64,000 nt of DNA from Mycoplasmatota bacterium (lineage in GTDB: Bacteria; Bacillota_I; Bacilli_A; RF39; UBA660). Positions 1 through 45,902 of the stretch are shown here, one piece after another. How positions within the stretch are numbered: position 1 is the stretch's first letter; every line of letters begins with the position of its first letter. The stretch is from positions 269-64,268 of the forward strand of contig JALFCF010000003.1 in NCBI GenBank assembly GCA_022771205.1. The letters run 5' to 3'. A program made the position numbers and the translations under genes. The notes beneath the pieces are model-generated. The model made no database searches and was not told the DNA's origin. It was given only the letters and a program-made list of their open reading frames with translations.

Positions 1-542
1 ATATAGCAGTTAATTCATATCCAGGTGTCGATAAAGATCATTCGGATGTAAAGAACTTATCTGATATGGCTGCTATTTTACAAGAGAATATTAAGACAAT
101 AAATGAATTAAAAGAAAAGATGATAAAAACTGCAAAAGAGTCACCTTACTTCGATATAATTAATTCTTTTTACGGGATAGGAGAAGTATTAACAACCGAA
201 TTATTAGGTGAATTAGGTGATATAACAAGATTTGATAATCATAGACAATTAATTGCTTTCTGTGGTTTAGATCCAACAATAATTCAATCTGGGAAAAGTA
301 TAAACGTGCATGGAACTATTTCTAAACGTGGAAATAAATATGCAAGATGGATATTATTTAATATTAGTCAAATAGTAGTTAAGTTAGGGCATCAATGTCC
401 TGGACACCCCGTATATGATTATTATTTAACAAAAAAAGCAGAAGGTAAACATTATTATGAAAACCTAACTGCTTGCTCTACAAAAATATTAAGAATGTTA
501 TATACAATGTGCAAAAATAATACAACATTCAAAATAAATTAA
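1..542 (+). CDS. IS110-family transposase, C-terminal portion (5' end lies upstream of the window)
   Basis: Reading frame is open from nt 3. Residues ...DITRFDNHRQLIAFCGLDPTIIQSGKS...ISKRGNKYARWILF match the IS110/IS1111 transposase C-terminal (Transposase_20-type) domain. Stop at 540-542. Confidence 0.8.
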   Translation, partial: IAVNSYPGVDKDHSDVKNLSDMAAILQENIKTINELKEKMIKTAKESPYFDIINSFYGIGEVLTTELLGELGDITRFDNHRQLIAFCGLDPTIIQSGKSINVHGTISKRGNKYARWILFNISQIVVKLGHQCPGHPVYDYYLTKKAEGKHYYENLTACSTKILRMLYTMCKNNTTFKIN

Positions 543-738
543 CAAATTAATTTTAACATATATATAATTACATTACACGAAAAAAATTAAAAAAACGCAT
601 ATTTTCGTGTTTTTAGTCGTGGTATAATATTAATATAAATTTAGTGTTGACAAAACTTAGATAGTCAATTTGTATGAGGGACTATTTTAAATAGTTCTTT
701 TTTGTTTGGAGGAATGATAATGATAAGGAGAATTATTA

Positions 739-1452
739 TTGCATAAACTAGATATTAATCAGGTTTATAATGGTGATTCAAATTTAATGATTAAATCAAT
801 AGAAAGTGAATCAGTTGATTTAGTTATTATTGATCCACCATACAAGATAAGAAAGAAAACTGATGAAATAAATAGTTTAGCAAAAGCAGTAAAAAAATAT
901 AATGAAGAATTACAAAGAGATAATTTAATAAATGAATATGATAAATCTATTTTAGAAGAACTTGTAAGAGTGATGAAAAGAATTAATATCTATATATGGT
1001 GTAATGGAGAACAAATACCATCGTATATAGATTTTTTTGTAAATAAGTATAAATGTAAGATGGATATATTAGTTTGGAATAAAACAAATGCTATGCCTTT
1101 ATTTAATAACAAATATATGACAGATAAAGAATATTGTCTTTATTTTAGAAAAGGTGGATATTGTAATCCACAATGTTATGAAGATGCTAAAACTGTATTC
1201 TATTTACCAATAAATTCAAAAGATAAAAAGAAATGGATTCATCCAACAATAAAACCTTTATCAATTATTAGAACTTTAATTAGAAATAGTTCTAAAGAAG
1301 GCGATTTAGTTTTAGATTGTTTTTTAGGTAGTGGAACAACAGCAGTAGCATCTATATTAGAAAAAAGAAACTATATAGGAATTGAATTAAATAAAAAATA
1401 TTATGATATTTCAATTCAAAGAATTAATGAAATTAAGGAGTGTGATAAATAA
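739..1452 (+). CDS. DNA methyltransferase, N6-adenine/N4-cytosine beta-class (motif IV DPPY before motif I)
   Basis: TTG start with AAGGAG 8 nt upstream. VIIDPPY (motif IV) near the N-terminus and LDCFLGSGTTAVAS (motif I, SAM binding) near the C-terminus. No adjacent restriction endonuclease gene. Confidence 0.75.
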   Translation: MHKLDINQVYNGDSNLMIKSIESESVDLVIIDPPYKIRKKTDEINSLAKAVKKYNEELQRDNLINEYDKSILEELVRVMKRINIYIWCNGEQIPSYIDFFVNKYKCKMDILVWNKTNAMPLFNNKYMTDKEYCLYFRKGGYCNPQCYEDAKTVFYLPINSKDKKKWIHPTIKPLSIIRTLIRNSSKEGDLVLDCFLGSGTTAVASILEKRNYIGIELNKKYYDISIQRINEIKECDK

Positions 1453-1928
1453 TGTATATAAGTAATGAAGAATTAGAAAAAATAAAAGAGTATGTAGATA
1501 ATCTTTATTGGGATCAAGATAGAATGAGTAGAGATGGGAGATACTTTTTAAATAAATTAGATAATTATATTAAAAAACTAGAAAAGGAAAAAGAAAATAA
1601 TATTTATGTAATTACTAATAATGCTGTAGTTGATGATGAAATTGATTATTCAATTTATGGAGTTGCAACAGATATCAATGAAGCAAAGAAAATATTTAAT
1701 CAAGCTGTAAAAGATGCAAAAACTGATTCTGATTTTGATAACTTAAATGCTATAGAAGAAAATTCTCCTAATTTTAAAAATAATGATGGTGAATGGATTT
1801 ATAGTGAATCAGATGATAGTTTTGAATTATGGTGTAATGGAGAATATAATTCAAATAATTATTCTATTCAAATTAAGAAATATGAATTAGATAAAGAAAA
1901 GGAATTAAGTGATGAGTATGAATTATAA
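1452..1928 (+). CDS. hypothetical acidic protein (element cargo)
   Basis: Start overlaps the MTase stop (TAATG). 158 aa, D/E-rich, no recognisable motif. Confidence 0.4.
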   Translation: MYISNEELEKIKEYVDNLYWDQDRMSRDGRYFLNKLDNYIKKLEKEKENNIYVITNNAVVDDEIDYSIYGVATDINEAKKIFNQAVKDAKTDSDFDNLNAIEENSPNFKNNDGEWIYSESDDSFELWCNGEYNSNNYSIQIKKYELDKEKELSDEYEL

Positions 1929-1939
1929 TATGGAGGATA

Positions 1940-3970
1940 ATGAGTATTAACATTATTATACTTTTAGTTGTGCTAATAGTTTTTACAATTGGATTTATGT
2001 ATATAGAACCAATGATGGCTAAGCATAAAATAAAAAGTGATAATGAATACGGTAGTGCAAGATTTTCTAGTAAAAGTGAGATAGAAAAATATTTTGTTAA
2101 AGAAAGAATAGGACACATCAGAGAAGCTGGTGTGCCTATTTTATTTAGTAAAGATTTGAAATATATGTGGGTAGATAAAGAAACCCCACACTATGTATAT
2201 TTAGGCTCTACTGGATCTGGTAAATCAGTAACAGCAGTTATTCCATTTTGTTCTTTTATAGCAACAGCAAAAAATAAAAGAAGTGTATTTATAACAGATC
2301 CTAAAGGAGAAATTTATAATACAACTTCATCAATGTTTAAGAAAAATGGATATAATGTTTTAACTATAGATTTTAGACATCCAGAATTATCAAATAAATT
2401 TAATGTATTAGAACCTATTATTAAAGAATATGAAAAGTATATTGAATACGAAAAGAAAACAAAAAAAGAAACAGATAAAAATAAAAAGTTAGAATATAAT
2501 AATTTATCTATGTCAGCACTAGCTGAAACAAATAGATTAATAACATCATTATCAACTATGATTATGGTTGAAAAAGTTCAAGGAAAAGATCCATTTTGGA
2601 ATAATAGTGCTAAAAATTTATTAGAGGGATTAATTGGATTCTTTTTAGAAGAATATAAATCAGGAAATATTAGACGAGATCAAATAACTATGACTAGTAT
2701 TAGAAAGTTCCAAAATAGTTCTATGGAAGAAAAGAATTTAAAGAACTTTAAAAAGTATATTGAACAAAAAGAATATGGTAGTAAATCAAAAGATTCTTTA
2801 ACTTCAATATTAAGTGCATCTGATAATACATTTAAATCAATAACAGCTGTATTTGGTGAGAAAATGGCTTTATTTGATGATATCAATGTAGCAAATGTAA
2901 CGAGTAGTAATAGTTTTGATTTTGATATATTAGGTAAAGAACCAACAGCTTTATATGTAATAGTTCCAGATGAAGATAAAACATATTATACTTTAGTAAC
3001 TATCATCGTAGGTCTTTTATATAGAGAATTAGTAAAACTTGCTAATTCAAGACAAGAGAAAAAATTGAAATATCAAATAGATTGGATATTAGATGAATTT
3101 GCTAACTGTCCACCACTTGCAGATATAGAAGCAATTGTATCAGTAGCAAGAAGCAGGGGTATGAGATTCCACTTCTTTATTCAATCATTTTCTCAATTAG
3201 ATAATGTATATGGTAAAGAAGTATCTCAAATTATTTTAGATAACTGTGGTCTTGTTTATTTAAAAACAAATACACAAGAAACAGCAGAAGCAATTAGTAA
3301 AAGATTAGGAAAGACAACAATTGAATCTAATTCTATTAGTCAATCAATGAGTTTAAGAGATTATAATGGAAATAAATCAACTTCATTAATTGCAAGAGAT
3401 TTAATGACACCAGATGAAGTAAAACAACTTCATTATAAAACTATAATATTTCCTATAATAGGATATCCGATATTAAGAGATACAATTATTTATAAAAAGT
3501 TTTCATCATATAGTAGTGGTGAAGAAGTTAGAACTGTAAATCCTTTAATTGATTTAAGTAATACATATTTTACTGTAGAAGATATTAAAGTAAAAAGAAT
3601 AGATCCTAAATCAAGAAATTCATCAAAAGATTTAGAACCAGTTGAATTAGAAGAATATGATGAAATGCTTGATTATGATAAACAATGTTTAAAAGAAACC
3701 GAAGAAATAATTAATAAGATATTTGGTATTGAAAATATAAAATATGATTATATAAAAACAGACAGTAATAGAGTTTATTGTTCTATTACAGTAAATAAGA
3801 AAATACCACAATCTGATAAATCAAAAGTATTATCACAAATAAATAAAAATAAATTTCATGTAGAAATTCAAAATGATAAAGATACTAAAACAATAATTGA
3901 AATTCATAATAAAGAATTAGATATGAATCATTTATTAGAACTTAGTAGAGGAGAAACGAATAATGTCTAA
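1940..3970 (+). CDS. type IV secretion/conjugative coupling protein (VirD4/TraG family)
   Basis: N-terminal TM helix, YGSARFSS motif, Walker A GSTGSGKS and the TraG/VirD4-type DPKGE motif. GGAGGA RBS. Confidence 0.7.
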   Translation: MSINIIILLVVLIVFTIGFMYIEPMMAKHKIKSDNEYGSARFSSKSEIEKYFVKERIGHIREAGVPILFSKDLKYMWVDKETPHYVYLGSTGSGKSVTAVIPFCSFIATAKNKRSVFITDPKGEIYNTTSSMFKKNGYNVLTIDFRHPELSNKFNVLEPIIKEYEKYIEYEKKTKKETDKNKKLEYNNLSMSALAETNRLITSLSTMIMVEKVQGKDPFWNNSAKNLLEGLIGFFLEEYKSGNIRRDQITMTSIRKFQNSSMEEKNLKNFKKYIEQKEYGSKSKDSLTSILSASDNTFKSITAVFGEKMALFDDINVANVTSSNSFDFDILGKEPTALYVIVPDEDKTYYTLVTIIVGLLYRELVKLANSRQEKKLKYQIDWILDEFANCPPLADIEAIVSVARSRGMRFHFFIQSFSQLDNVYGKEVSQIILDNCGLVYLKTNTQETAEAISKRLGKTTIESNSISQSMSLRDYNGNKSTSLIARDLMTPDEVKQLHYKTIIFPIIGYPILRDTIIYKKFSSYSSGEEVRTVNPLIDLSNTYFTVEDIKVKRIDPKSRNSSKDLEPVELEEYDEMLDYDKQCLKETEEIINKIFGIENIKYDYIKTDSNRVYCSITVNKKIPQSDKSKVLSQINKNKFHVEIQNDKDTKTIIEIHNKELDMNHLLELSRGETNNV

Positions 3971-4035
3971 TAATAAGATGTTATTCATTTTTTCTAATAT
4001 ATCTTCATACAATTCATTGAAAATGGAGGTTCTAA

Positions 4036-4251
4036 ATGTATAATCCAGACAATGATATTGAAATTAGATATAGCACTAAACATTTACCTATAGAGTATAA
4101 ATTGTTAGAGTGGAGATTAATTATCAATAGAGAGTTATATGAAGATAAAGTTATAGATTTAGAAGTATTTAGTGAAATGGAGAAATCTATTTTAGGAAGA
4201 ATGACAAAAATTAGAAATGAATATAAAGATAAACAAATTGTAACAAGTTAG
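4036..4251 (+). CDS. hypothetical small protein
   Basis: 71-aa ORF between the T4CP and recombinase genes. No motif. Confidence 0.3.
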   Translation: MYNPDNDIEIRYSTKHLPIEYKLLEWRLIINRELYEDKVIDLEVFSEMEKSILGRMTKIRNEYKDKQIVTS

Positions 4252-4335
4252 TTTAGATGATTTGACAAGGACAAACAAGAGAGGTAACATGGCATCGTAA
4301 ACTTTGGGAGGAGTTTCAGGAACACAGGAAAGGAA

Positions 4336-6180
4336 GTGGGAATAATGGATATAAAAAAAGCAAGAGAAGATTTAAGAAAAGGAAAAACAATATATGATAT
4401 GCCACTAAAAGTAGTATATTATGCTCGTGTTTCTACAGATAAAGATGATCAATTAAATTCATTAGAGAATCAACAAAATTATTTTGAAGAAATGATTGCA
4501 GAAAATAAGAATTGGAAATTTGTAAGAGGTTATATTGATGAAGGTATAAGTGGAACAGCTGTTAAAAATAGAACTCAATTCTTAAATATGATTGAAGCAG
4601 CTAGTTTAGGAAAAATAGATTTAATATTAACAAAAGAAATATCAAGATTTTCAAGAAATACAGTAGATTCAATTAAATATACAGAATATTTATTAAAACA
4701 AGGAACTATTGTATATTTCTTATCGGATAACTTAAATACTATTCAAGAAGATGCAGAATTTAGATTAACAATAATGTCTAGTTTAGCTCAAGATGAAGTT
4801 AGAAAATTATCAGAAAGAGTTAAATTTGGAATAAATAGAATGATAAAGGAAAGAAAATTAATAGGTGGAAACTTAACAGGGTATTATAAGAAAGACGGAA
4901 TGTATCAAATAAACGAAAAAGAAGCACCTATGATTAGATATTTATTTGAAACTTATGCATCTGGAAAAGTAGGACTTAAAAAGATTGGTGAAGAACTTGC
5001 TGAAATGGGATATTTAAATAGAAAAGGTGAACCTTATTCTCAAACTTCTATGGCTAAGTTCTTAACTAATCCTAGATATAAAGGATTTTATACAGCTAGA
5101 CTTACCGAAGTAGAAGATTATAAAACTCATAAAAAAGTTAATGTAGATAAGTCTAGACAAATAATTGAAAAAGATGAAAGAATACCTGCAATTGTATCAG
5201 AAGAATTATGGGATAAAGCAAATGCTTTACATGAGAAAAGAAAGAAATTGCCATCAAGACATATTTTAAATACTGAAGAAATGTTAGAACATTCTAAGTA
5301 TTCTTGTAAAATTAAATGTACTCATTGTGATCATATATATATCAGAAATGCTGGAAGTAATAGAGCAAATAATCCAACATGGTCTTGTAAAAATTATAAA
5401 GTAAATGGTGTAGATGCTTGTGCATCACCAATATTAAAAGAATCTTATTTAGATAAGATATTTATATCAATATTTGATGATTTTATAAATAATAAAAAAG
5501 ATTATTTAAATCAAGTTATTACTGAATATAAAAATATAGTTGAAAGTATTTCAAATAATAAAAGTTCAAAAGATTTAGAAAAAGAAATAGATTTAATAAA
5601 TAGACAAAAAGATAAATTATTAGATTTAAGTTTAAAAGGATTAATAAGTGATGTTGAATTCAAAAAGAGAAATGATGGATTCAATGAACAAATATTTAAA
5701 TTTGAAGAAGAAATAAAAAGGATAGATAATAAAGAAATAGAAATCAAAAAAATGAATGAAAAAATGAATGAGTTAAGCAAAGCTTTAACAAAGAAAGTAG
5801 ATATTAAGAATGAACTACCACATCTAATTAAATTATTAATTGATAGAATTGAAATAACTAAAGTAAATAATAATAGAAAACATGTAAGAATGGTAGTATA
5901 TTTCAACTTTAATACAGACATAATTGATAGAGAATTAGACTTATATGAAAAGAAAGAAAAACCTACTATAAAAGTAGATGTGAATTCATTACAAAGTGAT
6001 GAAATTTCTTTTAATCAAAAATGTTCCTGTATAGACCAGAATATTCGTTCTGGTCTATACGAGAACATAAATGTTGGTATTGGGAACATCAATGATATCA
6101 AGGAAAATGATGATTCAAAATGTTGCCGTATTCACCAGAACGAATCCAGGATTTGTAAAAATGGGCCAATTATTAGGTAA
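4336..6180 (+). CDS. large serine recombinase/integrase; 3' end of the ORF is read-through into host PBP DNA
   Basis: N-terminal resolvase catalytic domain (VVYYARVSTDKDDQLNSLENQ, ...EISRFSR...), recombinase domain, zinc-ribbon cysteines (CKIKCTHCDH...WSCKNYKVNGVDAC) and a coiled-coil segment. The native C-terminus probably lies near nt 5950-6030. The last ~50 codons come from junction/host sequence. Confidence 0.85.
   Translation: MGIMDIKKAREDLRKGKTIYDMPLKVVYYARVSTDKDDQLNSLENQQNYFEEMIAENKNWKFVRGYIDEGISGTAVKNRTQFLNMIEAASLGKIDLILTKEISRFSRNTVDSIKYTEYLLKQGTIVYFLSDNLNTIQEDAEFRLTIMSSLAQDEVRKLSERVKFGINRMIKERKLIGGNLTGYYKKDGMYQINEKEAPMIRYLFETYASGKVGLKKIGEELAEMGYLNRKGEPYSQTSMAKFLTNPRYKGFYTARLTEVEDYKTHKKVNVDKSRQIIEKDERIPAIVSEELWDKANALHEKRKKLPSRHILNTEEMLEHSKYSCKIKCTHCDHIYIRNAGSNRANNPTWSCKNYKVNGVDACASPILKESYLDKIFISIFDDFINNKKDYLNQVITEYKNIVESISNNKSSKDLEKEIDLINRQKDKLLDLSLKGLISDVEFKKRNDGFNEQIFKFEEEIKRIDNKEIEIKKMNEKMNELSKALTKKVDIKNELPHLIKLLIDRIEITKVNNNRKHVRMVVYFNFNTDIIDRELDLYEKKEKPTIKVDVNSLQSDEISFNQKCSCIDQNIRSGLYENINVGIGNINDIKENDDSKCCRIHQNESRICKNGPIIR
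6029..6060. repeat. perfect 13-6-13 bp palindrome gtatagaccagaa-tattcg-ttctggtctatac (candidate serine-recombinase att core)
   Basis: Read directly from the sequence. Sits at the element/host junction inside the recombinase read-through tail. Confidence 0.6.
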
Positions 6181-7003
6181 ACAAACGCTATTTAATTACA
6201 TTGATAAATTTGGTTTCGGTAATAAAACAGGAATAGATTTAAATGGAGAAGGAAAAGGTATTATTTTTGATCTAAATCAAGTCGGAAATGTAGAACTAGC
6301 TACTACAGCATTTGGTCAAGGAGTAAGTGTTACACCTATTCAACAAGTAGCAGCAGTCTCCGCAGTAGTAAATGGTGGAACATTATATGAGCCATATATC
6401 GTAAAAAGTATTTCAGAAAAGGAAACAGGAAATATTATAGACCAAACAAAAAAACAAAAAATAAGACAAGTAATTAGTAAAAAAACCTCAACAATTATGA
6501 GACATGCATTAGAAAGTGTAGTTGCTAAAGGTGGAGGAAAAAGTGCCTATATTGAAGGGTATAGAATTGGTGGAAAAACAGGAACAGCACAAAAAGTAAA
6601 GAATGGAGTCTATATGGTAGGAAATTATATTATGTCATTTATGGCTGTAGTTCCATCAAATAATCCAAAAGCAGTGTTATATTTAGCCATAGATAATCCT
6701 AAAAATACGGCTTTACTTTCTAGTTATACTACAACTCCGATAGCAAGACGTATTTTATTAGATATTATTGATGCCCTAAATATCCCTAAACAAGATGGAG
6801 AAATGAAAAAAGATTTAGAATGGACAGATATTCCAACACATAAAGTTCCCAATGTTGTTGATAAAACAGTAGAAGAGGCAAAAAAAGCACTAGGCAAATT
6901 TACTATAGAGTATTCAGGTACCGGAAAAAAAGTAGTCGCACAGTCTCCTAAAGCTAATGAACATTTAGAAGAAGGTGGAACTGTTAGGCTTCTATTAAAA
7001 TAA
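6071..7003 (+). pseudogene. 3' portion of a class B penicillin-binding protein gene (FtsI/SpoVD/PBP2B type with PASTA domain), truncated by the mobile element
   Basis: FGFGNKTGIDLNGE, the KTG box (GYRIGGKTGTAQ) and a C-terminal PASTA domain are present. The N-terminal dimerisation domain and the SxxK active-site region are absent. An in-frame stop sits immediately upstream of 6071. Confidence 0.65.
6127..6145. repeat. half-site-like imperfect copy of one palindrome arm (gtattcaccagaacgaat), 16 of 18 identical
   Basis: Matches the reverse complement of the 6029-6060 arm plus spacer (gtatagaccagaacgaat). Lies within the PBP remnant. Confidence 0.4.
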
Positions 7004-7072
7004 TTTTACACAAAGAAAAAAAGTAATTACTAGAAAAACTATAAAATAAGAAAAAATTATGATAAACTTAAA

Positions 7073-8782
7073 ATGGTGAAAGATATGAACGAGACAATCG
7101 GAGAAAAAGGTGGCAGAAGAGATAGAAAAAGAACTATCATTATAACCTCTGAAAATAAAAAGAAATTAAAAGAATATTATAAAAAAAAGAAGAAACTAAA
7201 ATTAGAAAAGTTAGAAAGAGAAGTAAAAAATCTCCAACTAGCTTCTTTTCTTGTGGCAGTTCCAATTTCTATTGCTGGAAATATATATGATGCAATGTTT
7301 CATGTTATAGATGAAACAAAAGAAGAAGAAAAAGAAAAAGGGTTACAAAAAGAATTACGAGATAAAGCCAAAGGATTACAAGTAGAAGAATTGCATCAAA
7401 CAGAAAAATTAGAATTAAGTGAAACATCTACTTACATAGAAGATTACCAAACAAATGATAGAAAATTTACAGACTATGGTTATCCAAAAACAATTGAAGG
7501 TAAGATGATAGTATCTTTAGCAGATAATAAAAAATTAAACAGTGTAAAGACAAATATCGAAATAACACTTCCACCGCAAATAGCCAAAACCCAAGTTTCT
7601 CTAACAGAAAACAATAAACTTGGAAAAAAAGAAGACATTTTGAATCAAACAAATCAAGAATCAAAAATAGAAGTATTGGAAGAAAAGCAAGATACAATAC
7701 CTATGCCGGCAGCAGGGATGTCTTTTATAGAAAATACAGTTTTTCAAAAAGCTCAAGATAAAACACTTGTCGTAAAATATGAAGAAAAGTTTAAGGATAT
7801 AAGAGAAGAATTAAAAGAATTAATATATGAGTACAATGTATTAGCCCAAGAAACTAATGACATATATACATCGAAAGAAGCAGAGAATATTTTACACCAG
7901 TTAAACATGGTTATAAAAAAATTAGAAGAGTTAAAAGGGAAAATTAAAGTAGAAGTTGCTGATTTAGAAAATGAGAATTATTTAATAGAATTAGTAGATG
8001 GGTATATAGAGAGCTTTAAAAATAAAAAGATAGTAGACGAAGTAAAAGATTCAGCTTTGTATATTATGCTTGCTGACAAGGTAGAAGAATTAACTACAAA
8101 AACAGGTAGTCTTAATACCAAATTAGAAGATAAAAAAGAAGAATTAGAATTAGATGAAGAAAAAATAGAAACACTAAAAGATGCTTATTATAATTATGAT
8201 AACTTCAATAACCAATTAATTTCTTTTCAATATGAGCAAGATTTTATGTTAAAAGAATTAGAACAGAGAGTACAGGAATCTACATCTATAACAGAACAAG
8301 TAGAATATAGAATACAATTAATGACAAAGCAAAGTAAAAGACTATTAAAAATGTTAGCACTTCCTATGATGATTCCAGGAGGCAGAAGTGCTAAAGCTAT
8401 GGCTACCGCAACAGCAGCTTATATGTATTTTATGAAAAACCTAATGAACCCTAGATTACAACAGAAAAAATATAGAATTATTTCGGTAACTGATTATAGC
8501 CGAGAAATAGAAAATAATATTTCTAAGGTAAGTGATGCCATCAATTTAATTGGAAAGACTTCTGATAAGTTAGAAGAAATGATTACAAAGTTGGAAAAAG
8601 ATTTCAAAGACTACATAGATGAAATACCTGAATGTAAAGAACTATTATCAAATTTAAATAAGCTATTATCAGAATTAAAACAAAAAGAAGAAGAATTAGT
8701 AAAAACAAAAAGTAAACAAGAAAATTTATTAGAAAAAAATAATCAAAAAGTAAAAACTTTAGAAAGAGTAGAAGAAGTGTAA
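7073..8782 (+). CDS. hypothetical K/E-rich coiled-coil protein with two hydrophobic segments
   Basis: 569 aa. TM-like segments LASFLVAVPISIAG (N-terminal) and LALPMMIPGG...AAYMYFM (C-terminal). Long heptad-like K/E stretches. Sits between the PBP remnant and mraY. Confidence 0.5.
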   Translation: MVKDMNETIGEKGGRRDRKRTIIITSENKKKLKEYYKKKKKLKLEKLEREVKNLQLASFLVAVPISIAGNIYDAMFHVIDETKEEEKEKGLQKELRDKAKGLQVEELHQTEKLELSETSTYIEDYQTNDRKFTDYGYPKTIEGKMIVSLADNKKLNSVKTNIEITLPPQIAKTQVSLTENNKLGKKEDILNQTNQESKIEVLEEKQDTIPMPAAGMSFIENTVFQKAQDKTLVVKYEEKFKDIREELKELIYEYNVLAQETNDIYTSKEAENILHQLNMVIKKLEELKGKIKVEVADLENENYLIELVDGYIESFKNKKIVDEVKDSALYIMLADKVEELTTKTGSLNTKLEDKKEELELDEEKIETLKDAYYNYDNFNNQLISFQYEQDFMLKELEQRVQESTSITEQVEYRIQLMTKQSKRLLKMLALPMMIPGGRSAKAMATATAAYMYFMKNLMNPRLQQKKYRIISVTDYSREIENNISKVSDAINLIGKTSDKLEEMITKLEKDFKDYIDEIPECKELLSNLNKLLSELKQKEEELVKTKSKQENLLEKNNQKVKTLERVEEV

Positions 8783-9926: not shown

Positions 9927-10814
9927 ATGCAGCTAAAAAACAAAAAGAAAATTTGTCTATCAATTCTATTAATTAGTATAATGATAATAACTTTAATAAT
10001 CCCAACAGTAAAAGCTGATTCTGGATTTGACTCTAGCTATGACTCTGGTAGCAGTTGGGATAGTGGATCATCGTGGGATAGCGGTTCATCATGGGATAAT
10101 GATTATGATTATTATAGCAGTTCCGCTAGTAGTGAAAGTATCTCATCACCTTATGGGGCAGTAATAATATTATTTGTAGTGATAATAGTAGTTTTCCTTT
10201 CATTAGCAGTAGAAAAAAGCAAGAAAAATAATATGGGTAATATTACTTCATTAATACTAAAACCACTTGACAAAGGAAAATCATTATCTATAGAAGAAAT
10301 TAAGAAATTTATTCCTAATTACAATGAAAATGAATTTTTAAAAGAAAGATATCAAGACTATTTAGATATTCAAAATGCTTGGATGAATTTTGAATATGAG
10401 AAATTGAGAACTAAGCTAACTGATGAGTTATATAATCAATATGAAATGCAACTACAGACTTTAAAAATCAAAAATGAACAAAATATAATGGAAGCATTTG
10501 AATATATTGATTCTATTATCACTGACGTAAAAGAAGAAAATAATCAATTAACCATAACTATGGAACTTCAAGTTGCTTTCTATGATTATATAGTCCAAAA
10601 CAAAAAAATAGTAAGAGGAAATAAAACACAAAAAATTTATATGCACTATGAATTAGTATTTGTATGTAATAAAACAACACCAGACATCTGTCCTCATTGT
10701 GGTGCTAAATTAACTAATAAAGCATCCCAAAAATGTGAATATTGTGGAAGTATTATAGCTAAGGTATCTAAAGATTGGGTGTTGAGTAAAAAGGAGGCCA
10801 AGGATCAAAAATGA
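9927..10814 (+). CDS. membrane-anchored protein: signal peptide, SGSSWD repeats, TM helix, Tim44-like domain, C-terminal zinc ribbon + DWVL
   Basis: Signal/TM segments. Three SGSSWD(S) repeats. CPHCGAKL...CEYCGSII...DWVLS tail. Middle domain resembles Tim44-like/NTF2-fold. Confidence 0.5.
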   Translation: MQLKNKKKICLSILLISIMIITLIIPTVKADSGFDSSYDSGSSWDSGSSWDSGSSWDNDYDYYSSSASSESISSPYGAVIILFVVIIVVFLSLAVEKSKKNNMGNITSLILKPLDKGKSLSIEEIKKFIPNYNENEFLKERYQDYLDIQNAWMNFEYEKLRTKLTDELYNQYEMQLQTLKIKNEQNIMEAFEYIDSIITDVKEENNQLTITMELQVAFYDYIVQNKKIVRGNKTQKIYMHYELVFVCNKTTPDICPHCGAKLTNKASQKCEYCGSIIAKVSKDWVLSKKEAKDQK

Positions 10815-11353
10815 CATTAGAAGATTTAATAAAAAAAGACAAAAGTTTTTCTGAAAGTGGTTTTTTAGCAAAAGTAGACAATACTTACATTATGATTTTA
10901 ATGGCAATTATGACAGAAGATTTAAAACGAGTAGACCATAAAGTAGGAGATGAATTATATCAAGAACTAACTACCAAATTACAATCATCCAAAGAAGCAA
11001 ATAAGATTCAAATGTATGATGAATTAAACGTTAAAGATTCATATATTATCGGAATAGAAGAGACAGAAAACTATTATGAAATAAAAGTACAACTAATATC
11101 TAGATATATGGATTATCAAATAGACAAAACAACAAGGCAATATAAATCTGGAAATAATCAAAGTCGAGTAGAAAAAACACATATCTTAACATTCCAAAAG
11201 AAAAAAAATGCTCAAGTAGAAGGAATGAGTAGAACTTGCCCAGGATGTGGTGCTTCCGTAAATGCTAACAGCAGTGGCGTGTGTGAGTATTGTGGTACTG
11301 TTTATAATACAGAGGATTATGATTGGGTATTAATGCAAATAAAGACACAATAA
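10811..11353 (+). CDS. paralogue of the preceding gene: Tim44-like domain + zinc ribbon + DWVL, lacking the N-terminal membrane part
   Basis: CPGCGASV...CEYCGTVY...DWVLMQ tail. ATGA start/stop overlap with the upstream gene. Confidence 0.5.
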   Translation: MTLEDLIKKDKSFSESGFLAKVDNTYIMILMAIMTEDLKRVDHKVGDELYQELTTKLQSSKEANKIQMYDELNVKDSYIIGIEETENYYEIKVQLISRYMDYQIDKTTRQYKSGNNQSRVEKTHILTFQKKKNAQVEGMSRTCPGCGASVNANSSGVCEYCGTVYNTEDYDWVLMQIKTQ

Positions 11354-45656: not shown

Positions 45657-45686
45657 AAAAGGGATTTAAGTTTCCCTTTTTTCTTC
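45654..45686. terminator. bidirectional terminator between convergent genes
   Basis: aaaaaaggga-tttaagtt-tcccttttttc. Confidence 0.5.
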
Positions 45687-45902
45687 CTCTAATCCCTTTT
45701 CAACACGTTTCTTAATAATATCAATTAATTGATTTTTTAATTCCTGATCAGCATTTTCCCAAATAATTTCTAAAAATACCCCAAGTCCAGGAAGAGTAAC
45801 TTCATCCTGAGAAGTGACTGATTCATCAATAGCCCTTCGTAAGATATCATAATCATCACCTTTAAAATTATTAATAATATGTTCACGAATACTTAAGTTC
45901 AT
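45666..45902 (-). CDS. sspI: small acid-soluble spore protein I (SspI) family
   Basis: ...VTLPGLGVFLEIIWENADQELKNQL... aligns with Bacillus SspI (...MLPGLGVLFEVIWQHA...). Confidence 0.55.
   Translation of the reverse strand: MNLSIREHIINNFKGDDYDILRRAIDESVTSQDEVTLPGLGVFLEIIWENADQELKNQLIDIIKKRVEKGLEEEKRET

Follow-up and report, generated by a model that had tools for sequence, protein, structure and literature searches.

Programmed DNA rearrangement in bacteria has its textbook example in the intervening elements of sporulation genes. To our knowledge, these have been described from cultured Bacillus and Clostridium only, and the sporulation genes known to be targeted are sigK, spsM, spoVFB, spoVR, gerE and yabG. 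In SP-beta and in skin(Cd) the timing is carried by the recombination directionality factor (RDF; PMC5595907). Skin elements of different hosts share only the recombination module (Galperin et al., bioRxiv 10.1101/2022.02.25.481979), and the same holds for the elements described here. The locus analysed is a stretch of 64,000 nucleotides from a Mycoplasmatota bacterium (GenBank assembly GCA_022771205.1, contig JALFCF010000003.1, positions 269–64,268 of the forward strand; in the following the window, to which all positions without a locus number refer). Positions 1–6142 form the right arm of an integrative element whose ancestor is an integrative and conjugative element (ICE), and this arm is followed directly by the 3′ part of a class B penicillin-binding protein (PBP) gene, by homology the sporulation gene spoVD. 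It is very likely that this is a site-specific, excision-competent element of a large serine recombinase (LSR) residing in spoVD. The only literature match for insertions into spoVD are laboratory secondary insertions of ICEBs1 (PMC3715440), and full-text literature searches gave no natural spoVD-interrupting element, in agreement with a first-pass annotation, made from the DNA letters alone, which had taken the gene not to be an established target.

The right boundary of the element carries this assignment. In a BLASTN search with positions 5900–7100 the homology to intact genes, i.e., to relatives lacking the element, whose comparison the first-pass annotation had proposed, starts exactly at position 6143 in all 40 of the 40 best listed alignments. 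Intact genes read ..AAT TCT TGT|AAC CCA GGA TTT.. (N-S-C-N-P-G-F) and the window reads ..caccagaacg|AAT CCA GGA TTT..; the break therefore falls on the codon for Asn in the catalytic motif SxN, and the crossover is the AA dinucleotide of this codon (S-C-N|P-G-F). The spoVD 3′ fragment (6143–7003, plus strand) comprises 286 codons from the Asn of SxN through the KTG motif and one PASTA domain to the stop codon, matches the Transpeptidase profile at 103–298 as well as PASTA, and is 87% identical to a query built from intact relatives. Beside it on the same strand lies the LSR gene in its integrated truncated form (ATG at 4345, GTG at 4336, end at 6180), which encodes the Resolvase, Recombinase and Zn_ribbon_recom domains of LSR elements (Pfam PF00239, PF07508 and PF13408 in 4336–6180). 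Its catalytic domain is nearest to PDB entry 3g13, a conjugative transposon recombinase, and to TnpX (2mhc), and the motif YARVSTDKDDQ is invariant across the recombinase alignment. The read-through of the recombinase open reading frame (ORF) into the PBP gene, described earlier, was found to span 38 nt across the junction because the integrated ORF has no stop codon of its own before it; it proceeds in a frame different from that of the PBP.

The identity of the interrupted gene was derived from intact homologues. The homologue in a metagenome-assembled genome (MAG) of Candidatus Faecimonas intestinavium (L011; loci recovered in the searches carry L numbers) is 89% identical to the query, reaches 725 bits against the SpoVD equivalog cut-off of 688 bits (TIGR02214), a score far above that of any other PBP model, and the intact protein has 634 amino acids with a single PASTA domain. 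The window fragment alone scores 315 bits, i.e., below 688, as it covers only positions 346–633 of the model. Judged by this homology the gene is spoVD, coding for a sporulation-specific class B PBP, so that the term core cell-wall gene used in the first-pass annotation had to be given up. In Bacillus subtilis, spoVD is controlled by sigma-E, needed for cortex formation and repressed by SpoIIID (PMC517825), and by analogy expression in the mother cell may be expected here.

The attachment sites are those of a serine integrase. The attR site of the window (6117–6170, plus strand, placed by the homology boundary) consists of the P arm at 6117–6142 (..GTATTCACCAGAACG), the crossover AA at 6143–6144 and the B′ arm (TCCAGGATTTGT..). 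The P′ arm in the attL site of L171 (TCTTCTGGTGAATAC..) is the inverted repeat of the window P arm, and combining both sites reconstructs a window-type attP of GTATTCACCAGAACG-AA-TCTTCTGGTGAATAC. Complete elements have attL ..TCTTG(C/T)-AA-TCTTGGTGTTAC.. and attR ..GGTAACACCAAGC-AA-CC(C/A)GG.., the attP deduced from them being GGTAACACCAAGC-AA-TCTTGGTGTTAC, a near-perfect palindrome around the AA; attL, attR and attB (..TCTTGTAATCCAGG..; attP: ..CACCAGAACGAATCTTCTGGTG..) share a short core. In silico joining of the left side of attL, the AA and the right side of attR restores the consensus Q-N-S-C-N-P-G-F in frame. By its sequence this architecture, including the palindromic attP, is the hallmark of large serine integrases. 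Moreover, many 5′ halves of spoVD end with ..NSCN and a short tail, and the tail NSCN-LLVNTGTHLSL is the expected coding of the inverted repeat of the window P arm. A repeat search also revealed an internal attP-like palindrome at 6021–6068 (21-nt arms, 90% complementary, fold z = −3.95), which sits 75–120 nt inward from the end of the element. The left arm of this palindrome repeats the attR P arm in direct orientation with 83% identity, and on the minus strand the palindrome resembles the reconstructed attP.

The insertion in the window is one member of a large family. Among the 120 best matches taken from a protein search with the 3′ fragment (69–91% identity), nearly all have 277–353 amino acids and thus represent the same truncated form or one starting slightly further upstream, and their contigs carry an LSR gene immediately upstream on the same strand next to quite different cargo. 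A census by metagenome scan with the recombinase alignment, followed by tblastn, yielded about 40 loci in which a recombinase at least 47% identical to that of the window is directly followed by spoVD from residue 348/349. Together with the boundary at 6143, these same-site loci bear out the earlier view that a serine-recombinase element interrupts a SpoVD-type PBP gene in a skin-like layout with the recombinase beside the 3′ fragment. The spoVD fragments of these loci are 51–87% identical to the query and many host species are therefore involved. For recombinases of 38–43% identity, 18 of 19 loci lack a PBP gene in the vicinity, and their targets are presumably different ones; the remaining locus, L154, likewise gave no PBP match in the tblastn census. 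The recombinase of the window is 67, 52 and 39% identical to those of L002, L003 and L007, respectively. Three different elements (window, L002 and L003-5) share the identical insertion nucleotide, and L002 and L003-5 have the same 3′ protein behind different elements. Both gene halves flank the complete elements of L103 (3.5 kb), L097 (5.3 kb), L003-5 (6.3 kb), L112 (6.9 kb) and L152 (11.4 kb). A search with the N-terminal 349 amino acids of the L013 protein showed that of the 120 closest protein clusters 51 are cut at the SxN site, another 49 at one of two other sites, and only 15 are long, i.e., 100 of the 120, or about 85%, are truncated at insertion hot spots. Intact alleles occur in at least 80 species representatives; the ranking of this species-genome scan favours full-length genes and returned only intact ones, and it gives no fraction of split alleles.

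The left end of the window-type element is found in other assemblies, where the 5′ half of the PBP gene, which had been expected beyond the other end of the element, stands beside the same element type. In L171 and L172 the order is spoVD 5′ half, attL (..CAAAACTCTTGT-AA-TCTTCTGGTGAATACAGG..), an ORF resembling DUF5655 and a Y-family polymerase gene. L171 positions 5318–7222 are 98.7% identical to L091 positions 1–1906, and L091 is 96% identical to window 666–6703. The resulting composite element of about 9.4 kb comprises the DUF5655-like ORF, a UmuC-like polymerase, a YolD-like ORF, two small membrane ORFs, a methyltransferase, a hypothetical protein, a type IV coupling protein (T4CP), a small ORF and the LSR; the window copy adds an IS110 element upstream of the methyltransferase. 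The UmuC-like Y-family polymerase and YolD-like genes of the left arm (L091 61–2048; L171 5434–7220) form a pair that is typical of mobile elements. A search of the whole window gave no spoVD 5′ half, no second class B PBP and no second recombinase.

The family derives from an ICE, as L177 contains a full conjugative element with a VirB4-like ATPase, M23 peptidase, relaxase, methyltransferase, DUF7659, T4CP, small ORF and LSR. The composite of the window with L171/L091 has T4CP and LSR without relaxase or VirB4, i.e., less than a self-transmissible ICE, and the gene content marks the window copy as a decayed or mobilisable derivative. With a T4CP present and a relaxase and type IV secretion system (T4SS) missing, any transfer of this copy would therefore need a helper. 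The alternative of a conjugative or mobilisable element raised in the first-pass annotation is thus borne out for the origin of the family, not for a complete transfer apparatus in the window copy.

A feature of these elements is that attP lies within the reading frame of the LSR, so that integration splits the recombinase gene into a core of about 570–610 amino acids, which stays at attR, and a DUF5655-like part, which is placed at attL. When excision is carried out in silico, the recombinase ORF continues through attP and grows from 611 to 871 amino acids for the window combined with L171, from 581 to 875 for L152 and from 569 to 682 for L110, and the C-terminal extension of the window ORF is homologous to the DUF5655 region of L127. 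Contigs bearing attP contain correspondingly un-split ORFs of 857 (L127, 1233–3806) and 871 amino acids (L176, 3882–6497; L177, 10001–12616). The ORF of L127 comprises Resolvase, Recombinase, Zn_ribbon and DUF5655 (28.6 bits against a cut-off of 24), and a DUF5655-like ORF is the first gene past attL in L171 (4465–5282), L173, L152 and L003; a sequence search of PDB found nothing for this extension. In elements of the L003 type, the recombinase ORF ends about 47 nt short of attP, and a common operon of both genes would arise only on circularisation. As the DUF5655 ORF of L171 begins 48 nt behind the truncated spoVD 5′ ORF, it could conceivably be transcribed from the spoVD promoter in the integrated state. 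Free attP-bearing forms exist. In L127, 940 nt matching the left end of the integrated L097 element at 95% identity come after the recombinase and attP; a check of this contig for circularity gave no terminal overlap. The un-split LSR proteins of L176 and L177 are 99–99.8% identical over residues 1–566 to truncated recombinases beside spoVD in eight loci, and the identity to integrated copies stops exactly at the AA core.

Next to the SxN site, spoVD contains further insertion sites. At least four hot spots exist, namely S-T-F|K, S-C-N|P, AFG|QG and TPI|Q (sites 1, 2, 3a and 3b), each with its own element type. Site 1 interrupts the SxxK active-site motif (L007, 417–7398; L116, L120, L123, L145) and harbours two unrelated att types with recombinases of 36–41% identity. 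Site 3a lies after ..TAFG|QG (proteins P0151, P0161 and P0165–P0170), and site 3b after ..GQGVSVTPI|Q, with a conserved element end (L093 at about 6334, L128 at about 9919, L123 at about 18146). Loci with two elements are common and in L123 spoVD is in four pieces.

Several observations relate to the activity of the elements and to selection on the split gene. Split and intact alleles can be nearly identical: L002 and L003 show 99.8% and 98.8% identity to the intact L042, and L103 and L107 show 98.1% and 96.7% identity to the intact L024. The recombinase of the window is 98–100% identical in L091–L093 (the mraY gene of L091 being only 65% identical to that of the window), and the recombinase cluster P0241 counts 975 sequences of 100% identity. 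Every 3′ fragment contained completely in its locus is an uninterrupted ORF, the 286 codons of the window being free of stop codons and frameshifts. The ratios of non-synonymous to synonymous substitutions (dN/dS; Nei-Gojobori method) were 0.00–0.13 for split against nearly identical intact alleles and 0.044–0.093 for the window fragment against its nearest intact relatives, compared to 0.046–0.075 between intact genes. On these ratios the split alleles remain under purifying selection with no sign of relaxation. Furthermore, decayed elements such as L103 keep recombinase and small ORF and lose the T4CP. Since spoVD is strongly constrained yet usually interrupted, it must be rebuilt where it is needed, and since the integrated copies are stable in assemblies, the place of rebuilding is not the growing cell line; by analogy this logic would lead to mother-cell-specific excision. 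As a separate observation, the identity of 94–97.5% to L091, L092 and L093 runs 200–640 nt past the junction (6143–6783) and then collapses. A site-3b insertion marks the break in L093, and the breaks in L091 and L092 suggest either a mosaic spoVD formed by homologous recombination or chimeric assembly.

A conserved ORF of 71 amino acids (4036–4251, plus strand) directly 5′ of the recombinase is the candidate RDF; its motif LEYKLLEWRLI(I/L)N(R/K)ELY occurs in 53 of 61 recombinase loci. A candidate mother-cell-type −10 element, the box CATACAAT (4006–4013, plus strand), lies 22 nt 5′ of its ATG and is preceded by a hairpin with T-run overlapping the T4CP stop codon. A CATAnAnT-like box 8–12 nt before the ribosome-binding site (RBS) of the small ORF is kept in diverged elements; the short-ORF type reads TTCATATT-14-ATAAAATT. 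In spoVD itself, a CATA box stands 22–26 nt before the ATG in about 75 of 78 relatives compared to roughly 8% among control genes. Promoters of sigma-E and sigma-K are marked by −10 elements of the CATA type; strict regular expressions for both gave no match. As a side observation, almost all intact spoVD genes (L011–L090) show, 20–30 nt 5′ of the start codon, a GAAC...GTTC hairpin with T-run, then the CATA box, at a fixed distance to the RBS, and several elements have this arrangement ahead of the small ORF. The T-run was considered as a −35 element and rejected, being part of upstream terminator-like hairpins. A match to TTGACA-17-TAACAT at 4262–4290 is a weak candidate for the recombinase's own promoter, an arrangement known from SP-beta and skin(Cd).

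The explanation which is moderately favoured overall is that the LSR, which inserts the element at a fixed attB inside spoVD, would with the small ORF product as directionality factor excise it and rebuild the gene. Excision would probably take place in the mother cell at the time when cortex synthesis needs SpoVD, the forespore chromosome would keep the element as it keeps skin in sigK, and the same excision might also feed horizontal transfer. Its parts differ in strength: a functional gene in use by the host is the likely outcome of excision, and developmental timing in the mother cell, drawn from the analogy to known systems, has about even chances. Several points weigh against this explanation. 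The window contains neither 5′ half nor attL, both being known from other assemblies; the small ORF matched no Pfam or NCBIfam family in profile scans; a sigma-70 pattern scan did not rise above shuffled sequences and the CATA box also fits the sigma-A pattern TAnAnT; L127 and L177 could be tandem or plasmid forms instead of excision circles; low dN/dS is not strict proof of use after insertion, as insertions may be young; and the putative sporulation capacity of the host is drawn from the SpoVD equivalog together with SpoVE-like and SspI-like proteins that both score below their cut-offs.

The competing view is that of a purely selfish ICE or integrative and mobilisable element, for which spoVD is a conserved, vegetatively dispensable landing site, whose insertion abolishes or lowers sporulation and whose excision serves transfer only. 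It is possible, at clearly lower probability than mother-cell-linked restoration of spoVD, and draws on the T4CP in the window, the VirB4 and relaxase of L177, the copies of 96–100% identity in different host backgrounds, the Tet(M)-like cargo gene of one element and the intact alleles of the species representatives, while the sigma-factor evidence points neither way. However, split alleles dominate the closest N-terminal clusters and yet evolve under the same purifying selection as intact genes, the decayed L103 has no intact transfer gene and still keeps recombinase and small ORF, as fits host selection for excision, and genes with two or three elements are irreversibly dead unless each of them excises. 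An old insertion that destroyed a redundant PBP gene, leaving element and 3′ fragment to decay, would agree with the 5′ half missing from the window, with the IS110 inside the element and with the composite lacking relaxase and T4SS; this inert relic is largely refuted and very improbable, as the element ORFs in the window are intact, the P0241 recombinase recurs in its hundreds of identical members, the fragment is uninterrupted at a dN/dS of about 0.05 and the matching 5′ half and attL stand on L171/L172. That metagenome contigs often break near such elements and that identity to L091/L092 passes the junction and then drops might point to a chimeric join of mobile element and PBP gene, i.e., an assembly artefact; dozens of assemblies made independently in different projects show the junction at the same nucleotide, and with different elements, which leaves this idea a practically negligible chance.

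Extending the restoration of spoVD by excision, a joint reading can be formulated, which is held as tentative and rather unlikely as a whole. Here spoVD would be a "gene in pieces" across an order-level group of uncultured gut Bacilli, with most alleles interrupted at one to three of the four hot spots in the transpeptidase domain, two of these being in the SxxK and SxN motifs and the other two lying within the conserved stretch of AFG|QG and TPI|Q. Integration would split both host and recombinase genes and put the DUF5655-like part behind the spoVD promoter, and either this developmental promoter or a state-specific recombinase isoform would set direction and timing of the recombination, resulting in a self-timing excision switch.

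All genes named in the first-pass annotation (IS110, DPPY methyltransferase, VirD4/TraG, LSR and PBP) were recovered by ORF listing and Pfam/NCBIfam profiles, and all element ORFs in the window are intact. At the left edge the C-terminal part of an IS110-family transposase is encoded (3–542, plus strand; Pfam Transposase_20 at 66–542, 3.7e-22). The transposase stands as described, its status as a fragment does not: the frame is free of stop codons between base 3 and 66, indicating a gene cut by the window edge, with only the Transposase_20 part inside the window and the N-terminal part beyond base 1. The IS110 lies inside the element, similarity to L091/L093 beginning at 666, and it probably caused the break of window and contig. 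As a side observation, the IS110 protein is 100% identical in L096 (1290–1826), where it resides in a different spoVD element with a recombinase of only 67% identity; the IS therefore moves among such elements. An N6/N4 DNA methyltransferase with DPPY motif follows (739–1452, plus strand; Pfam N6_N4_Mtase, 5.5e-34), with homologues at the same position in L094, L096, L100, L108, L109, L117, L152, L163, L176 and L177. The hypothetical 158-amino-acid protein behind it (1452–1928, plus strand) gave no Pfam or NCBIfam match; homologues of 45% identity exist in L094, L096 and L100, and a DUF7659 gene takes this place in other relatives. The full-length T4CP (1940–3970, plus strand; VirD4/TraG, CD1115 family; Pfam T4SS-DNA_transf, 2.6e-68) scores 298 bits against the cut-off of 250 of NCBIfam NF045973 (conju_CD1115) and is whole in larger relatives and present only as fragments in small elements. 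An exact look-up of the T4CP for leftward extension returned only a 3.6-kb contig. A known plasmid was rejected as source, as plasmid DNA matches are short (67–68%) and confined to the methyltransferase and the start of the recombinase gene, and so was a known prophage, phage integrases being at most 43% identical.

Cargo and layout vary in other members of the family. In the complete L152 element, positions 4042–5964 encode a Tet(M)/Tet(O)-like ribosomal protection GTPase of 640 amino acids, next to PadR, glyoxalase and GyrI-like genes. Site-3b elements and some site-2 elements (L128, 10343–19071; L003, 1776–6251) carry clusters of nucleotide-metabolism and base-modification genes (cytidine-deaminase-like, GNATs, Nudix, radical SAM, HhH-GPD, UDG, nucleoside deoxyribosyltransferase, kinases and MazG-like, several of them assigned by eye), for which a role in defence or anti-defence is possible. 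In L113, L121, L124 and L126 the recombinase module lies beside the 5′ half, with 6–8 kb of cargo between module and 3′ piece in L124. The element of L129 has the opposite orientation to the 5′ half, and L143 has a long-form recombinase at a distance of 7 kb from a 5′ fragment. These atypical layouts may reflect tandem accretion or rearrangement.

The order of the genes at the locus is spoVD, a coiled-coil ORF, mraY, two Tim44-like ORFs and ftsW/spoVE. It had been placed at the head of a dcw cluster, to which mraY and ftsW/spoVE downstream correspond; mraZ, rsmH and ftsL are absent upstream of spoVD in relatives with a visible 5′ end, and murE, murF or murD were not found at this locus. A paralogous class B PBP (29% identity) is located about 2 kb upstream of spoVD in some relatives, as pbpB likewise stands upstream of spoVD in Bacillus. 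The ftsW/spoVE gene scores 441.7 bits with the spoVE model (cut-off 448.8) and 407.7 bits with the ftsW model (cut-off 337.5). The coiled-coil ORF (7073–8782, 569 amino acids) has no family and is always found between spoVD and mraY in relatives, with lengths of 528, 466 and 416 amino acids in L006, L002 and L007. The two Tim44-like ORFs (9927–11353) lie between mraY and ftsW/spoVE in the window and in L006, and both window copies end in zinc-ribbon motifs.

The relatives are MAGs of uncultured gut bacteria classified as Bacilli incertae sedis (Ca. Faecimonas, Ca. Onthousia, Ca. Scybalousia, "Mycoplasma sp. CAG:877" and "Clostridium sp. CAG:417"). The sspI homologue at 45666–45902, from which the sporulation capacity of the genome had been deduced, is present as an SspI-like ORF; it lies on the minus strand and its 56.2 bits fall short of the cut-off of 58.35. 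Among 30 further window ORFs scanned it was the only sporulation-type gene, and one response-regulator receiver domain among them gave a weak partial match to the Spo0A model.

These results have several implications. Annotation pipelines will call a split spoVD a pseudogene or miss it, so that sporulation capacity is under-called in these taxa. For genome engineering, the recombinases offer a set of diverged LSRs whose att sites are short, conserved and defined, and a Tet(M)-like resistance gene is among the cargo of at least one element. If true, a self-timing excision switch would be of a kind undescribed for serine integrases.

Compared to the known systems, the element lies inside the coding sequence of a sporulation gene whose ORF is restored in silico, as in the structural definition of intervening elements. 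The closest counterpart is skin in sigK (SpoIVCA in B. subtilis; CD1231 with the RDF CD1234 in C. difficile), which likewise interrupts a mother-cell sporulation gene, has its LSR gene at the element edge beside the 3′ fragment on the same strand and restores the ORF by precise excision. Unlike skin, the target is spoVD, the origin is an ICE instead of a prophage, attP is located within the recombinase ORF, one gene offers several hot spots with up to three elements in tandem, and excision during sporulation is here a proposal by analogy. SP-beta in spsM (SprA/SprB; PMC4191935, PMC5499854) likewise uses one LSR for mobility and gene reconstitution, whereby the recombinase may be constitutive and the small RDF gives the timing; however, SP-beta is a functional phage, whereas the spoVD elements are conjugative or mobilisable and their control by an RDF is putative. 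The gin element in gerE of B. cereus ATCC 10987 (GirC/GirX; PMC5595907) is likewise of non-prophage type, with a serine recombinase, a small directionality factor and att sites that show an imperfect inverted repeat and a predicted AA crossover. In contrast, gin has 28.6 kb, three recombinases and a 225-bp regulator gene as target, whereas the spoVD element has a single LSR with a small ORF and interrupts catalytic codons of a PBP, and the gin recombinase is only generically related to its LSR.

The LSRs of clostridial conjugative transposons (TndX of Tn5397, TnpX of Tn4451 and CTn elements) share with the spoVD elements the likeness of the catalytic domain and the T4CP of the CD1115 family, together with VirB4 and relaxase in L177. 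Unlike these, the spoVD elements show strict single-site specificity for spoVD codons, a DUF5655-like extension that is split off by integration, and widespread decay to cassettes of recombinase and small ORF. An attP inside a phage gene, where integration changes the C-terminus of the product, is known for int of myxophage Mx8 and for the integration-dependent immunity of mycobacteriophage BPs, both of which use tyrosine integrases. In the spoVD elements it is an LSR gene that integration divides, and its DUF5655-like part comes to lie immediately behind the 5′ half of the host gene. As a summary, the skin-like principle is known, whereas the target, an enzyme gene cut in its catalytic motifs, the conjugative and not phage-derived origin and the host group of uncultured gut Bacilli with reduced genomes are new, and the location of attP within the LSR ORF and the multiple hot spots are unusual.

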